A stretch of DNA of 30,887 nt from Escherichia coli (GCF_003334405.1 NZ_QOWM01000028.1), one strand, 5' to 3'. Positions 1,989-7,825 are shown, counted from the first letter of the stretch. Notes: generated from the sequence alone by a model not told the origin. Numbers and translations: made by a program.

Positions 1989-3278
1989 ATGAAAGTATTA
2001 GTGATTGGTAACGGCGGGCGCGAGCACGCGCTGGCCTGGAAAGCGGCCCAGTCGCCGCTGGTTGAGACTGTTTTTGTTGCTCCGGGTAATGCAGGCACTG
2101 CACTGGAACCCGCGCTGCAAAACGTTGCTATTGGCGTGACCGATATCCCGGCGCTGTTGGATTTCGCACAAAACGAAAAGATTGATCTGACCATCGTCGG
2201 CCCGGAAGCGCCGCTGGTGAAAGGCGTGGTCGATACCTTCCGCGCCGCCGGGCTGAAAATCTTCGGCCCAACCGCAGGTGCGGCCCAACTGGAAGGCTCA
2301 AAAGCGTTTACCAAAGATTTCCTGGCCCGCCATAAGATCCCTACGGCGGAATACCAGAACTTCACCGAGGTAGAACCTGCGCTGGCGTATCTGCGTGAGA
2401 AAGGCGCGCCAATCGTCATTAAAGCGGACGGTCTGGCTGCCGGGAAAGGCGTTATCGTGGCGATGACGCTGGAAGAAGCGGAAGCGGCTGTTCACGATAT
2501 GCTGGCGGGCAACGCTTTTGGCAACGCGGGTCATCGCATCGTTATCGAAGAGTTCCTCGATGGCGAAGAAGCGAGCTTTATCGTGATGGTGGACGGCGAG
2601 CATGTGCTGCCGATGGCTACCAGCCAGGATCACAAACGCGTAGGCGATAAAGATACCGGACCAAACACCGGCGGGATGGGCGCTTACTCCCCCGCGCCGG
2701 TAGTAACCGATGACGTTCATCAGCGCACCATGAAACGTATTATCTGGCCAACCGTGAAAGGCATGGCGGCGGAAGGCAACACCTACACCGGTTTTCTCTA
2801 CGCGGGCCTGATGATCGACAAACAGGGCAATCCGAAGGTTATTGAATTTAACTGCCGCTTTGGCGATCCGGAAACCCAGCCGATTATGCTGCGCATGAAG
2901 TCCGATCTGGTTGAGCTCTGCCTGGCGGCCTGTGAAAGCAAACTGGACGAGAAAACGTCCGAGTGGGATGAACGCGCTTCTCTCGGCGTGGTGATGGCTG
3001 CGGGTGGATATCCGGGTGATTACCGCACCGGTGACGTGATCCACGGCCTGCCGCTGGAAGAAGTGGCAGGCGGCAAAGTGTTCCACGCGGGCACAAAACT
3101 GGCGGATGACGAGCAGGTAGTGACCAACGGCGGGCGCGTACTGTGCGTCACCGCGCTGGGTCATACCGTGGCAGAAGCGCAGAAACGCGCCTATGCCTTA
3201 ATGACCGATATCCACTGGGACGACTGCTTCTGCCGGAAAGATATCGGCTGGCGCGCTATCGAACGCGAGCAGAACTAA
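1989..3278 (+). CDS. purD: Phosphoribosylamine-glycine ligase (GAR synthetase)
   Basis: 429-aa ORF starting MKVLVIGNGGREHALAWKAAQSPL, an ATP-grasp protein. Length equals E. coli PurD. Operonic with purH. Confidence 0.97.
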   Translation: MKVLVIGNGGREHALAWKAAQSPLVETVFVAPGNAGTALEPALQNVAIGVTDIPALLDFAQNEKIDLTIVGPEAPLVKGVVDTFRAAGLKIFGPTAGAAQLEGSKAFTKDFLARHKIPTAEYQNFTEVEPALAYLREKGAPIVIKADGLAAGKGVIVAMTLEEAEAAVHDMLAGNAFGNAGHRIVIEEFLDGEEASFIVMVDGEHVLPMATSQDHKRVGDKDTGPNTGGMGAYSPAPVVTDDVHQRTMKRIIWPTVKGMAAEGNTYTGFLYAGLMIDKQGNPKVIEFNCRFGDPETQPIMLRMKSDLVELCLAACESKLDEKTSEWDERASLGVVMAAGGYPGDYRTGDVIHGLPLEEVAGGKVFHAGTKLADDEQVVTNGGRVLCVTALGHTVAEAQKRAYALMTDIHWDDCFCRKDIGWRAIEREQN

Positions 3279-4600
3279 CGCGACAGTTTTGCCAATAGCG
3301 TTTTGCGCGTGATCCCTAACTGACGGGCGGCTTCGGTTTTGTTGCCGCCCGTTTTCTCCAGCGCCGCCAGAATCACCTCTTTTTCCACTTCCACCAACGG
3401 CTGAATATCCTGACTTTGTCCCAGCGGGATCGGCGTACTGGCAATCGCCAGCGGCAGCTCGCGTTCGGAAATATATTCCCCGGTCAGCAGCACCACTGCC
3501 CGTTCCACCGCGTTTTCCAGCTCACGAATATTTCCCGGCCAGTCGTAATGAATCAACAGATCCATCGCCTGGGGCGTAAAACCTTTTACCGCCTTGCGAT
3601 TACGCTCGGCAAAGCGCTGCAGAAAATGGCCAGCCAGCAGAGGGATATCTTCCCGCCGTTGCCGCAGCGATGGTACTTCAATCGCCACCACATTCAGGCG
3701 ATAGTAGAGATCCTGGCGAAAACGCCCGGCATTCACCTCTGCGGCAAGATCGCGATGGGTCGCCGCAATCAGCCGGACATCAACCGAGATAATCTGGTTG
3801 CTACCGACACGCTGAACTTCGCGCTCCTGAATCGCACGCAGCAGACGCACCTGCATCATCGGCGAGATATCGCCAATTTCATCGAGAAACAGCGTGCCGC
3901 CGTCCGCCTCAACAAAGCGCCCTTCCCGGCGTTTATCGGCTCCAGTAAACGCCCCTTTTTCGTGACCGAACAATTCAGATTCCAGCAAGGATTCGTTGAG
4001 TGCCGCACAGTTGAGCGTTACCAGCGGTTTTTCGCTACGTGCGCTACTGGCGTGAATCGCCCTGGCGACCAGCTCTTTACCGGTGCCGGAATCGCCGTGG
4101 ATCAGTACCGTGGCTTCCGATGGCGCGACGAGGGCGATTTCACTGAGCAGGTGTTGCATCGCCGGGCTTTTACCGACCATACCGAACTGGCTGGCAGTCA
4201 CCGCAGGTGTTTCAGCATCAATACTGTGCGTATGCGCGAGCGCTTTTTCCAGCGTCGCCTGTAGGTTATCGAAATCCAGCGGCTTGATGAGATAATCCAG
4301 CGCCCCAGTTTTCAGTGCCTCTACCGCCGTCTCGACGCTGGAGTACGCAGTCATAATCAGCACCGGAATTGCCGGGTTTAACGCTTTGATCTCTTTCAGC
4401 GTGGCGATGCCGTCCATCTCCGCCATTCGCACATCGCAAAGCACAAGATCAAAAACCTGTTCCCGCACCTGCTCCAACGCCTGTCGCCCGCTGTTCGCCA
4501 GCGCGACGTTATAGCCCCAGCCGCGCAGTAAAGCCTGCAAAATAGTGCAGTGGCTAATGTCATCATCCACCACCAGAATATCGATATTATCGTGCGTCAT
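3275..4600 (-). CDS. zraR: Sigma54-dependent two-component response regulator (NtrC family)
   Basis: 441-aa ORF with a receiver domain ([13 protein letters not shown]...), an AAA+ sigma54-activator core ([14 protein letters not shown]) and a C-terminal HTH. ATGA overlap with upstream zraS. Confidence 0.95.
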
Positions 4601-5994
4601 CCTTGTGGGTCCTTACGCGTAATATTGACCGGAAGCCAGAGGGTGAACGTTGAGCCTTTTCCCTCCTGGCTTGCGACCTGAATTGTACCACCGTGTTGTT
4701 CAACAATATTATGCACGACCGCCAGCCCCAATCCGGTGCCTTCGGCTTTAGTGGTGAAGTACGGAGTGAAGATGGCATCAAGCTGATCTGCCGCAATTCC
4801 CTTACCGCTGTCGGTAACGCTGATTTTCACGCCCGCGCCGCTTTCGCTGGCCGTCACGCTAATCACGCCATGCTGACCAATCGCCTGAATAGCATTGAGA
4901 TAGAGATTCAACAGGACCTGAGTCAGCCTGTCCGGGTCGGCCTGAATTTCCGGTAATGTGTCGTTGGCGGTAAAGCGTAACTGGATCTCCCGGCTGTTTG
5001 CATCCTGACTTACCAGCTGTAATGAGTGGTTAATCAGCGTGTTGAGATCCACCGCCTGCAAAGCCAGATGCGTTGGCTTAACCAGTTCCAGCAACTCGCT
5101 TACCACGCGGTTTAAACGGTCGGCCTCTTTCGCCATCACCTGCGCCAGTTGATGCGCTTCTCCCCCTGCAGGCGCGCGCTCGGCAAAGTATTTCGCCAGT
5201 CCTTTAATCGAGGAAAGTGGGTTACGGATTTCGTGGGCAACGCCTGCCGCAAGATGCCCCAGCGCCACCAGCTTCTCTTTGCGCTTCATTTCATCTTGTA
5301 GAAGCTGGCGCGAGCGCAGATAGCGGCGATACCAGAAGAATGACAATACGCTTGCCAGCAAGACCGTCGCCAGGGCGAAGAGGATAATCAGGGTATTGCG
5401 CTTTTCCCCACTCTGGGTTGCAACCAGATCACTGGCATCAACGGCGATAAAAATAGCCTGTTGTGCATCTACTTGTGGCACAGCTTTGCCGTTACAGCGC
5501 GGCATATTGTGCATTCCATGCCGCCAGGGCGCTGACATTGGCTGGAACAAACGATAGACCTCAAGTGCAGGCGTAGTTTCCGTTTTCCCAAGCAGCCGCC
5601 AGCGGGAGTTTTCCTCTGGCTTTAATTTCTGCATTTCATCCGGCGAATAGAGCGCACGCCCGACCTTATCGGGGTCGCTATGAAGAATAATGATGCCCTG
5701 CGCATCGGTGACTGCGAACCACAACACTCCCGGCTGTCCCGCCATCTCTTCCAGAAGCGCCTGTTGCTGTACATGGTGCATTCGCATCCCCATCCCTACG
5801 CGGCTTCCCGACTCCAGAGCGCGGATAAGCACATTACCTTTTTCCAGTAATGCCTGGCGGTCTGCCTCGCTTGCCCGCCCATAATCACGAATCACAGTTA
5901 CCGCAAACAATCCCACCAGCCCAACAATGACCACGGGGAGGATCGCGCTTAACCATTTAGCTAAGGAGTCTTTAGAACGTTGCATAAAACGCAT
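4597..5994 (-). CDS. zraS: Sensor histidine kinase of the zinc/envelope-stress two-component system
   Basis: 465-aa ORF with an N-terminal transmembrane segment, periplasmic domain, second TM, an H-box (HEIRNPL) and an HATPase_c region (GTGLGLAVV). The 3' end overlaps the zraR start by 4 nt. Confidence 0.95.
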   Translation of the reverse strand: MRFMQRSKDSLAKWLSAILPVVIVGLVGLFAVTVIRDYGRASEADRQALLEKGNVLIRALESGSRVGMGMRMHHVQQQALLEEMAGQPGVLWFAVTDAQGIIILHSDPDKVGRALYSPDEMQKLKPEENSRWRLLGKTETTPALEVYRLFQPMSAPWRHGMHNMPRCNGKAVPQVDAQQAIFIAVDASDLVATQSGEKRNTLIILFALATVLLASVLSFFWYRRYLRSRQLLQDEMKRKEKLVALGHLAAGVAHEIRNPLSSIKGLAKYFAERAPAGGEAHQLAQVMAKEADRLNRVVSELLELVKPTHLALQAVDLNTLINHSLQLVSQDANSREIQLRFTANDTLPEIQADPDRLTQVLLNLYLNAIQAIGQHGVISVTASESGAGVKISVTDSGKGIAADQLDAIFTPYFTTKAEGTGLGLAVVHNIVEQHGGTIQVASQEGKGSTFTLWLPVNITRKDPQG

Positions 5995-6024
5995 CTTCTT
6001 CTTTGCCTGCTCATCCCTTTCTGA

Positions 6025-6043
6025 CAGCAGAAATCATGCCATC
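6025..6043 (-). promoter_or_regulatory. Candidate sigma54 (-24/-12) promoter for zraSR
   Basis: Minus strand reads TGGCATG-ATTT-CTGCT, with GG and GC 12 nt apart as in the consensus TGGCACG-N4-TTGCW. It lies about 30 bp upstream of the zraS ATG. Confidence 0.5.
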
Positions 6044-6092
6044 TTTTATCAGCGCTTACCCTGCGCTGTAACACAAAGGCTTAAGTTTCAAT

Positions 6093-6138
6093 GAGTAAAA
6101 ATGACTCGCTACCCGCAGCAGGCGAGTCATTTTTACTC
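6093..6138. promoter_or_regulatory. Perfect 17-bp inverted repeat separated by 12 bp; probable ZraR enhancer (UAS) shared by the divergent zraP and zraSR promoters
   Basis: GAGTAAAAATGACTCGC (6093..6109) and GCGAGTCATTTTTACTC (6122..6138) are exact reverse complements. They sit between two divergent sigma54-type promoters, as expected for an NtrC-family activator site. Confidence 0.65.
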
Positions 6139-6180
6139 GTTTATCATGCCAGATTACCCGTCATATCAGCGTTTCATCGT

Positions 6181-6197
6181 TGGCACGGAAGATGCAA
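6181..6197 (+). promoter_or_regulatory. Sigma54 (-24/-12) promoter for zraP
   Basis: TGGCACG-GAAG-ATGCA matches TGGCACG-N4-TTGCW with correct GG/GC spacing. It lies about 35 bp upstream of the zraP ATG, with a GGAGG RBS at 6220..6224. Confidence 0.7.
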
Positions 6198-6231
6198 TAC
6201 CCGAAGTAAGACAACCACTGGAGGATTAACC

Positions 6232-6657
6232 ATGAAACGGAACACGAAAATTGCCCTGGTAATGATGGCGCTTTCAGCAATGGCGATGGGATCGACATCT
6301 GCATTTGCTCACGGCGGACACGGTATGTGGCAGCAAAATGCCGCGCCTTTGACCAGCGAACAACAGACAGCGTGGCAGAAAATCCATAATGACTTTTACG
6401 CTCAAAGCAGCGCACTGCAACAGCAACTGGTGACGAAGCGTTATGAATACAATGCCCTGTTAGCCGCGAACCCACCGGATAGCAGCAAAATTAACGCGGT
6501 CGCCAAAGAGATGGAGAATTTGCGTCAGTCGTTAGATGAGTTACGGGTGAAACGAGATATCGCGATGGCTGAAGCGGGTATTCCGCGCGGAGCCGGAATG
6601 GGCATGGGCTACGGCGGCTGCGGTGGTGGCGGTCATATGGGTATGGGCCACTGGTAA
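6232..6657 (+). CDS. zraP: Periplasmic zinc-binding chaperone / signalling-pathway modulator
   Basis: 141-aa product MKRNTKIALVMMALSAMAMGSTSAFA... with a signal peptide and Gly/Met/His-rich termini. Start chosen at the ATG behind a GGAGG RBS and downstream of the sigma54 promoter; the longer ORF from 6091 would begin inside the ZraR inverted repeat. Confidence 0.9.
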   Translation: MKRNTKIALVMMALSAMAMGSTSAFAHGGHGMWQQNAAPLTSEQQTAWQKIHNDFYAQSSALQQQLVTKRYEYNALLAANPPDSSKINAVAKEMENLRQSLDELRVKRDIAMAEAGIPRGAGMGMGYGGCGGGGHMGMGHW

Positions 6658-6658
6658 A

Positions 6659-7360
6659 TCAGAACGTTTTCTCGTTGGGTTGCCAGCGACAGAAATCAGA
6701 GTTTGCCACTAACAGTAATTGCGAACCTTCGGGCGCTTCCAGCCATGCCACGCTGACATCAACAGAAGAGCGGCTCTGGCGGCGCTCGATATGCGCTATC
6801 GCCTGCGAATCTAAATCAGGTTTAATGGTTTGCCCTTCGCAGGTGGTCACGGTCTGTTCCATCGCATGCCAGCGCCCCTGGCGCAGCACGACTCTCCCCT
6901 GACGTAAGGCATCGCTAATCTGGCGGATCTGATCAGCACGATAACGGTATAAATCGATTTGGTCGTTAGAAAGCTGCTGCTTTTCCCCATCGGATTCACG
7001 TTGCATAAAGCTCAGATCACCGCGATCGTCAAAACGCGCGCGAATATTCACCGGCGGTTTGCTGTAAACATTGATATTGATGAGCGTGAGGTTATCGCCC
7101 TGCCAGCGATACTCTCGCGTCGTGGTATCGCCACTGCGCCACGGGCTAAACACGGCAAGCAGATGCACATTATCGCCGCTGTCTTTTCGCCAGATGCGTA
7201 CCGCGCCCTGGTCTTCAGCAAATCCACTGGCGGTAAAGGGAGGAAGTGAAGAGTTATGACTACAGGCAGTGAGAAGCAGAGCGCCAGCCAGCATCAATGA
7301 TCGACGCCAGAAAGACAAAAGGGGTGAAACCACCCCTTCGTTAAAACTGTTCACTGCCAC
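6659..7360 (-). CDS. yjaH: Uncharacterised putative lipoprotein (DUF1481 family)
   Basis: 233-aa ORF with a GTG start 6 nt after the hupA stop. N-terminal RR...LMLAGALLLTAC looks like a signal peptide with a lipobox (LTAC). Exact start is uncertain; the E. coli annotation is about 231 aa. Confidence 0.8.
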   Translation of the reverse strand: MAVNSFNEGVVSPLLSFWRRSLMLAGALLLTACSHNSSLPPFTASGFAEDQGAVRIWRKDSGDNVHLLAVFSPWRSGDTTTREYRWQGDNLTLININVYSKPPVNIRARFDDRGDLSFMQRESDGEKQQLSNDQIDLYRYRADQIRQISDALRQGRVVLRQGRWHAMEQTVTTCEGQTIKPDLDSQAIAHIERRQSRSSVDVSVAWLEAPEGSQLLLVANSDFCRWQPNEKTF

Positions 7361-7366
7361 GCAATC

Positions 7367-7639
7367 TTACTTAACTGCGTCTTTCAGTGCCTTGCCAGAA
7401 ACAAATGCCGGTACGTTAGCTGCGGCAATTTTGATTTCTTTACCGGTCTGCGGGTTGCGGCCAGTACGCTCAGCGCGGTGGTTCACTTTGAAGGTACCGA
7501 AACCAACCAGTTGTACAGCATCGCCTTCTTTCAGAGACTCAGTAATTGCAGCCAGAGTGGACTCCAGAGCAGCTTTAGCCTGGGTTTTGGACAGTTCTGC
7601 TTTCTCTGCAATTACATCAATCAGTTGAGTCTTGTTCAT
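7367..7639 (-). CDS. hupA: DNA-binding protein HU-alpha
   Basis: 90-aa [93 protein letters not shown], the HU-alpha sequence. Confidence 0.97.
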
Positions 7640-7734
7640 AAGTTATCCTTACAATGTGTTTATCGCTTGCTAAGCATCGAGTGCGACGGAAATGCCAGAA
7701 TAGCACTCTCCTGCATACACGCACCGATAGCCAC

Positions 7735-7775
7735 TTTTTTTCGCCCCCCAAATGTAGACCAGACGGGGGGCGAAA
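7735..7775. repeat. GC-clamped stem-loop (11-bp stem TTTCGCCCCCC / GGGGGGCGAAA, 15-nt loop) in the yjaG-hupA intergenic region
   Basis: Inverted repeat read directly from the sequence; preceded by T7 on the plus strand. It is not followed by a U-tract in the direction of yjaG or hupA transcription, so it is not a canonical intrinsic terminator. Confidence 0.6.
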
Positions 7776-7825
7776 GGGAAGACTCCAGGTACGACAAATC
7801 AGGCGTTAAATCACGTTTTCTGGTC

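Follow-up and report, generated by a model that had tools for sequence, protein, structure and literature searches.

A class of Rho-dependent termination that acts on untranslated or antisense RNA past a stop codon was reportedly described by Peters and co-workers in 2012. Of the 1078 Rho termination regions in the later genome-wide data of Adams et al. 2021 (PMC7815308), 51.5% lie antisense to genes; Rho is stated there to need untranslated RNA longer than 50 nt. The junction between the convergent Escherichia coli genes zraP and yjaH resembles this class in its bicyclomycin-sensitive read-through, its C-rich, G-poor RNA, the lack of a defined Term-seq end, and the ending of the yjaH transcript more than 50 nt past the stop, within the antisense of its neighbour. 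It differs from the class in nothing essential, its particular traits being an intergenic region of 1 nt and a rut-like stretch that is the complement of a Gly-rich protein tail.

Three other described systems are close to this locus. Convergent excludons (a Listeria concept, taken up in ExcludonFinder) also consist of convergent neighbours with overlapping transcripts, and the zraP/yjaH pair itself is listed among them (PMC12288877); however, nothing in these data points to mutually exclusive expression, and yjaH does not change by 2.8-fold or more when zraP is massively induced. The overlapping bidirectional terminators of Ju et al. 2019 (ynaJ-uspE model) likewise join convergent pairs with overlapping 3' ends, but those sites are reported as Rho-independent and hairpin-encoding, whereas zraP/yjaH has no spacer, shows structure on one strand and is Rho-dependent on the yjaH strand. 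Finally, REP/BIME elements, which occur in 207 of the 704 convergent pairs of E. coli (~30%), are found at the same position after yjaH in Citrobacter, Salmonella and Kosakonia, whereas no REP palindrome lies between the convergent stops in Escherichia, where the spacer is 1 nt.

Here we analyse this junction in a stretch of 30,887 nt of E. coli DNA (hereafter, the window). Taken together, the evidence makes it probable that zraP/yjaH is a spacer-less convergent junction at the border of a zraP-zraSR cassette, with 3' ends that are Rho-dependent and not intrinsic.

Organization of the junction

On the + strand the junction reads ...CAC TGG TAA a TCA GAA CGT... (Table 1). The original prediction had placed the stops of zraP and yjaH 1 nt apart, and its coordinates and gene names proved exact against the sequence and the RefSeq annotation. 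As a matter of geometry, the transcripts of the two genes must therefore overlap. The purD/zraR pair, which had been described as the same kind of arrangement, is indeed so and is even tighter. A wrong-stop annotation artefact was ruled out: the C-terminal ends of ZraP (GHMGMGHW) and YjaH (NEKTF) are kept across genera, which indicates that both stops are genuine. The Salmonella orthologue of ZraP matches Pfam PF13801 (Metal_resist), and PF07356 is assigned on YjaH homologues. The window matches E. coli K-12 MG1655 at 100% identity, and published positions were converted as window = 4207920 minus the NC_000913.3 position, a relation verified with a Term-seq sequence string.

Table 1. Features of the zraP/yjaH junction and its surroundings (window positions unless a comparison locus, L number, is given)
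Feature	Position	Strand	Basis and remarks
zraP CDS	6232..6657	+	141 aa periplasmic ZraP; RefSeq, ORF and translation
zraP stop TAA	6655-6657	+	sequence
Lone intergenic nucleotide A	6658		sequence; separates both stop codons
yjaH stop TGA	6661-6659 (TCA on + strand)	-	sequence
yjaH CDS as annotated	6659..7354	-	DUF1481 lipoprotein, GTG start; RefSeq
Neighbouring genes	hupA 7367-7639, zraS 4597-5994, zraR 3275-4600	- (all)	RefSeq
purD/zraR 4-nt overlap (purD TAA, + / zraR TAG, -)	3275..3278		annotation and sequence; purD ends at 3278 (+)
zraR-zraS / zraP cassette	3275..6657		gene order; L013, L014, L015, L010 vs L017, L018 and the window
sigma54 -24/-12 element of zraP (TTGGCACGGAAGATGCA)	6180..6196	+	motif from sigma54 ChIP-seq (PMC4591121), located in the window
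C-rich, G-poor rut-like RNA	6498..6658	-	follows the yjaH stop directly; the opposite strand encodes the Gly/Met-rich C-terminus of ZraP
Rho termination region peak, 'antisense zraP'	6518 (NC_000913.3 4201402, + there)	-	Adams et al. 2021 (PMC7815308), Supp. file 2
Rho termination region peak, 'antisense purD'	3009 (4204911, + there)	-	PMC7815308, Supp. file 2
Imperfect stem-loop from the zraP stop codon	6652..6708	+	dG -19.2, z -2.72 (2/200 shuffles)
Inner 7-bp hairpin of that stem-loop	6672-6689	+	dG -10.1, z -3.46 (0/200 shuffles); 15 nt past the zraP stop
hupA intrinsic terminator	7315..7339; hairpin 7339-7318, dominant 3' end 7315	-	terminator scan and Term-seq
Post-yjaH spacers examined	L007 3667-3754, L018 7697-7782, L009, L011, L014, L015		palindromes

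Termination past the stop codons

A consensus terminator scan of positions 5900-7900 returned the hupA terminator as its sole site, and none at the zraP/yjaH junction. A lenient scan (stem dG <= -5 and four or more T among the 8 nt that follow, over about 400 nt past each stop) gave only weak, bulged candidates on either strand and no terminator, and 200-nt folds around the junction were no different from those of shuffles. The G+C-rich stem-loop followed by a U-tract that is proper to an intrinsic or bidirectional hairpin terminator was thus not found at the junction, nor does any hairpin with a U-tract account for the 3' ends of yjaH. The earlier claim that the intergenic gap has no hairpin is borne out: 1 nt cannot hold a terminator, and by both scans no intrinsic terminator lies nearby.

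In the data of Adams et al. (PMC7815308), a Rho termination region peaks 141 nt past the yjaH stop (Table 1), with a Rho score of 17.2 and a p value of 9e-85 obtained from one experiment with one culture and 800-nt windows. Without bicyclomycin, 444 reads in the upstream 800 nt fell to 40 in the downstream 800 nt; in the presence of bicyclomycin 294 reads were counted upstream and 456 downstream. The minus-strand transcription past yjaH therefore falls about 10-fold, and the fall is gone when Rho is inhibited. Among about 100 of the rows of that table, three scores are higher. The coordinates of these Rho regions are approximate and closer to processed ends than to the true termination site. 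The downstream 800-nt window takes in the first ~280 nt of zraS, on the same strand, and an effect of bicyclomycin on zraS transcription could add to the signal at 6518. The same source (PMC7815308) gives a second region, with a Rho score of 4.28 (p 5.7e-8), at 266 nt beyond the stop of zraR.

These data bear on the word "terminator-less", which the original prediction had applied to both junctions. It is correct in that no intrinsic terminator is present, but Rho stops the yjaH transcript ~140 nt into zraP (17.2) and the zraR transcript inside purD (4.3), and the label is misleading. No Term-seq 3' end was reported at the yjaH stop or for zraP in three growth conditions (PMC7815308), as is expected of diffuse or processed Rho-dependent ends. 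The same study gives no Rho region antisense to yjaH or to zraR; for yjaH such a result is to be expected, given the scant expression of zraP in the media used.

At the purD/zraR junction no significant terminator-like site was detected; the one site found, about 315 nt into the purD antisense, is at chance level (1 found against 1.3 expected). It is a weak terminator-like hairpin, GGACG..CGTCC followed by AGTTTGCTTT, at 2945-2960 (-), some 50-65 nt downstream of the Rho peak at 3009.

Composition of the RNA downstream of yjaH

The RNA that directly follows the yjaH stop is unusual in composition. Its C/G ratio reaches 2.38 over the 150 nt of 6647-6498 (62 C, 26 G), which no other 150-nt window of the 30.9 kb, on either strand, surpasses, and 3.0 in its best 78-nt stretch (top 0.04%); ratios of 2.05 and 2.44 were obtained for 6658-6559 and 6608-6509, respectively, on the same strand. 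YC dinucleotides have a density of 0.226 in this RNA, compared with ~0.12 in the window. Untranslated C-rich RNA of at least ~80 nt is thus available on the yjaH strand, and from its composition the stretch would be a candidate rut site. The C-richness arises because this RNA is the complement of the GGN- and ATG-rich codons of the Gly/Met/His tail of ZraP, whose last 45 residues include 13 Gly and 5 Met. It was found in every zraP-bearing genus examined (C/G 1.7-2.35 in the zraP antisense); the purD antisense of genera without zraPSR has ratios of 0.93-1.23.

Past the zraP stop, the C/G of the + strand is 1.17-1.38, below the 1.3-1.7 of the purD antisense upstream of the Rho peak at 3009; its 78-nt maximum is 1.67 (95th percentile). 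An ending of zraP transcripts by Rho is therefore plausible, and would be expected to be weaker and more distal.

The Gly-rich tail of ZraP varies in length within Escherichia (135-142 aa for the protein) through in-frame indels of GGN/ATG repeats, at about 6590-6650.

Given the 1-nt gap and the lack of a hairpin-plus-U-tract terminator, RNA polymerase that runs past yjaH transcribes zraP in antisense. The resulting RNA is untranslated, exceptionally rich in C and poor in G, and the published bicyclomycin data show minus-strand transcription falling in a Rho-dependent manner about 140 nt past the yjaH stop. On the opposite strand, sigma54-driven zraP transcripts would likewise enter yjaH in antisense and would probably be ended by Rho further in and less sharply, C/G being 1.2-1.4 there; they may perhaps be trimmed back to the stem-loop at 6652-6708. 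The purD/zraR border would be expected to behave like the zraP/yjaH border, and the overlap of transcripts would merely follow from the gene layout and have little effect on regulation.

The hupA terminator and the 5' end of yjaH

The original prediction had referred to hupA-yjaH transcripts. This needs qualifying: the majority of hupA transcripts stop at an intrinsic terminator located 39 nt inside the annotated yjaH coding sequence. The corresponding 3' end (NC_000913.3 4200605) collected 14,561-102,752 Term-seq reads across three conditions, with an intrinsic-terminator score of 5.76 and a Rho score of 0.74 (PMC7815308). A comparison of 13 loci shows covariation in the stem (GGGGTG/CACCCC, GGGGCG/CGCCCC, GGGGCT/AGCCCC and GGGGCC/GGCCCC) while the 'residues' that it would encode change, which places the constraint on the RNA. 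The annotated GTG start of yjaH is doubtful; an in-frame TTG at 7318-7316, which is TCG in one Citrobacter, would give the protein a typical lipoprotein signal (MSFWRRSLMLAGALLLTAC). Expression of yjaH must depend on read-through of the hupA terminator or on an unmapped promoter.

The 5' region of hupA-yjaH in Enterobacter hormaechei (CP170191.1; L013 2486-2600) shows 1 difference in 113 nt from Escherichia whittamii, and YjaH of the same Enterobacter is 84% identical overall to the E. coli protein. This near-identity could reflect local recombination or strong conservation.

The zraP-zraSR region in related genera

Within Escherichia the junction is uniform. The sequence TGAtTTA is identical in 6/6 loci (three of E. 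coli and one each of E. albertii, E. whittamii and Escherichia sp.), and a 121-nt junction probe matched 5421 of 5426 complete E. coli genomes, in a single piece in the 12 of 12 matches listed. In other bearers of zraP the spacer after yjaH is longer, measuring 18 nt in C. sedlakii, 41 nt in S. enterica, with a single hairpin of 10-12 bp, and 85-89 nt in S. arizonae and other Citrobacter, with REP-type palindromes.

The zraPSR genes are present in Escherichia, Salmonella and some Citrobacter, and absent from Enterobacter hormaechei, Kosakonia radicincitans, Citrobacter koseri and the MAG UBA3516. In these four loci yjaH converges directly on purD, across a spacer of 46-87 nt that always contains strong palindromic hairpins. 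The 4-nt overlap of zraR and purD is identical in Salmonella and Citrobacter. Judged by gene order, zraP-zraSR behaves as a 3.4-kb cassette that was inserted in, or lost from, the convergent spacer. Lying in the older yjaH/purD spacer, this cassette has a tight junction at either border, which explains why two spacer-less junctions lie 3.4 kb apart. In this comparison the purD-side border is old and fixed and the yjaH-side border is spacer-less in Escherichia alone. A loss of the spacer in Escherichia would be a simpler reading than a gain of REP elements in its relatives, because every examined locus lacking zraPSR also has a hairpin after yjaH.

The REP/BIME-type palindromes after yjaH (GCCGGATG..CTTATCCGGCCTAC) were seen in Citrobacter, S. 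arizonae, Kosakonia and C. koseri. The Enterobacter and MAG spacers after yjaH carry a CCCTCTCCC/GGGAGAGGG hairpin.

zraP induction and yjaH expression

Between the sigma54 motifs at 6180-6196 (+) and 6042-6026 (-), the zraP-zraS divergent region contains a near-perfect inverted repeat, GAGTAAAAATGACTCGC...GCGAGTCATTTTTACTC (6092-6139), which we take to be the ZraR (HydG) enhancer binding site. An Rfam scan of 5500-8000 at E<=1 gave a sole match, MIR169_7 (E 0.84), on this palindrome; it was discarded as chance-level.

The sigma54 promoter that had been assigned to zraP is present (PMC4591121), and its strong induction, also part of the original prediction, is confirmed as dependent on ZraR and zinc by the data of Choudhary et al. 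2020 (PMC7657598), obtained from stranded libraries with strand-aware counting and with differentially expressed genes (DEGs) defined by |log2FC|>1.5 and FDR<0.05. In LB with 1 mM ZnCl2, the zraR knockout differed from the wild type by a log2FC of -12.7 for zraP and -3.2 for zraS. Expression of zraP is low in unsupplemented LB, to which zinc adds a ZraR-dependent induction of about 2^7-fold (PMC7657598).

One question is whether the junction works as a functional excludon, that is, as a selected switch in which sigma54-driven zraP represses yjaH and read-through from yjaH/hupA represses zraP, by interference and RNase III cleavage of the duplex, so that expression is mutually exclusive. Both yjaH-zraP and zraR-purD are included in the 'excludome' of ExcludonFinder (NAR 2025, PMC12288877), where Table 1 gives 165 convergent pairs with overlapping transcripts, the overlap being seen in 50% or more of the 58 RNA-seq sets used. 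Transcript overlap, expected for both pairs from the original prediction, is in this way already published. The listing nevertheless says nothing on function, since such a call is almost automatic for abutting genes. The fixation of the 1-nt junction throughout Escherichia would also suit a selected switch, but relatives keep a hairpin or REP spacer, so the tightness is not conserved beyond this genus.

Nor do the expression data support a strong switch. In plain LB, yjaH rose by a log2FC of 1.72 (3.3-fold) in the zraR knockout while zraP fell by 5.6 (PMC7657598). Such a rise would fit interference, but this interpretation was rejected, since hundreds of unrelated genes (mal, glp, lld and ibpAB among them) also differ in that comparison and confound it. 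Under zinc, where the zraP difference reaches 2^12.7, yjaH is absent from the 97 DEGs, which places any effect on yjaH mRNA below ~2.8-fold. The read-through of induced zraP into yjaH that the original prediction had stressed would thus be putative, and it finds no backing in this one stranded data set with zinc induction. In a macroarray of 2007 with low-shear culture (PMC1852313), yjaH and zraP were both down, a change in the same direction that also speaks against exclusion; as evidence of co-regulation this result was set aside, its strand not being interpretable. A strong excludon-type effect of zraP on yjaH is not supported, and we regard a functional excludon as unlikely. The sign of the yjaH change is opposite in PMC7657598 (LB) and PMC1852313, both of them confounded data sets.

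A conditional form of coupling can also be envisaged, in which the loss of the spacer in Escherichia made the junction a Rho-gated antisense link. Stress-fired zraP transcription from the sigma54 promoter would then invade yjaH as far as the region of the hupA terminator and reduce the amount of YjaH lipoprotein, and hupA/yjaH read-through would silence zraP and enter zraSR. If this were true, the triggers would be envelope or zinc stress on the zraP side and limiting Rho on the yjaH side, but we consider such coupling quite improbable.

RNA structure at the junction

On the + strand, an imperfect stem-loop extends from the zraP stop codon and encloses a 7-bp inner hairpin (Table 1). The sequence after 6689, CAGAAATC, has no U-tract, which excludes the stem-loop as an intrinsic terminator; pausing of polymerase or protection of the 3' end could be its role. 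No significant structure was found on the opposite (-) strand of 6652-6708 (z 0.29). Covariation of 6672-6689 within Escherichia gave no real support: E. albertii has two changes that preserve pairing, both one-sided, and in E. whittamii one pair is broken.

The presence of a moderately stable stem-loop on the zraP strand of a convergent junction brings to mind collision-driven bidirectional termination (Ju et al. 2019; Wang et al.), in which head-on polymerases set both 3' ends independently of Rho and for which sites have been reported in hundreds of E. coli convergent pairs. By its description this mechanism works without Rho and relies on an element that encodes a hairpin and makes polymerase pause in either direction, but at zraP/yjaH neither Rho independence nor a bidirectional hairpin element was found: the structure is specific to one strand (z -2.72 on the + strand vs 0.29 on the - strand), and read-through on the yjaH strand is sensitive to bicyclomycin (PMC7815308). 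Moreover, the ~10-fold drop on the yjaH strand occurs in spite of low zraP expression in unsupplemented LB, which leaves few opposing polymerases. This explanation appears very improbable. Conventional termination at cryptic intrinsic terminators shortly inside each partner coding sequence, which TransTermHP 'overlapping terminators' for 146/165 convergent pairs (PMC12288877) and the inner hairpin just past the zraP stop might suggest, is hardly credible, given that no hairpin with a U-tract occurs on either strand within 400 nt, that the tail after the hairpin is not of the required kind, and that no Term-seq 3' end lies there in three conditions, although zraP is barely expressed in those.

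Frequency and significance of stop-to-stop junctions

In order to place the junction among its like, six 50-kb stretches of the K-12 annotation were sampled, comprising 41 intact convergent CDS pairs. The gap in this sample has a median of ~54 nt and is 1 nt or less in 4/41 pairs, or 3/40 when one doubtful ORF is left out. The tight pairs are narL/ychO (0 nt), ycgR/emtA (1 nt), rfaH/tatD (-4 nt) and a pair near gadE that involves the doubtful, hypothetical ORF (0 nt); the first three are all on the ExcludonFinder list, as geometry predicts (PMC12288877). By this rough estimate, tight stop-to-stop pairs form a recurrent minority class of about 7-10% of convergent pairs.

The zraP/yjaH junction is an ordinary and already known feature, since both its overlap and its Rho region stand in published genome-wide tables, and its significance beyond annotation is small. 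What is added here is modest, namely that the rut-like stretch is a by-product of the Gly-rich tail of ZraP and that the two tight junctions are the borders of one cassette. That an 'excludon' call does not imply regulation may be a useful reminder. The junction, which we regard as probably Rho-dependent, offers a clean and well-documented example of how genes placed stop to stop are not left without termination, as Rho would act inside the neighbouring gene, and of how a coding constraint, in this case a Gly-rich tail, can provide the opposite strand with rut-like sequence for free.
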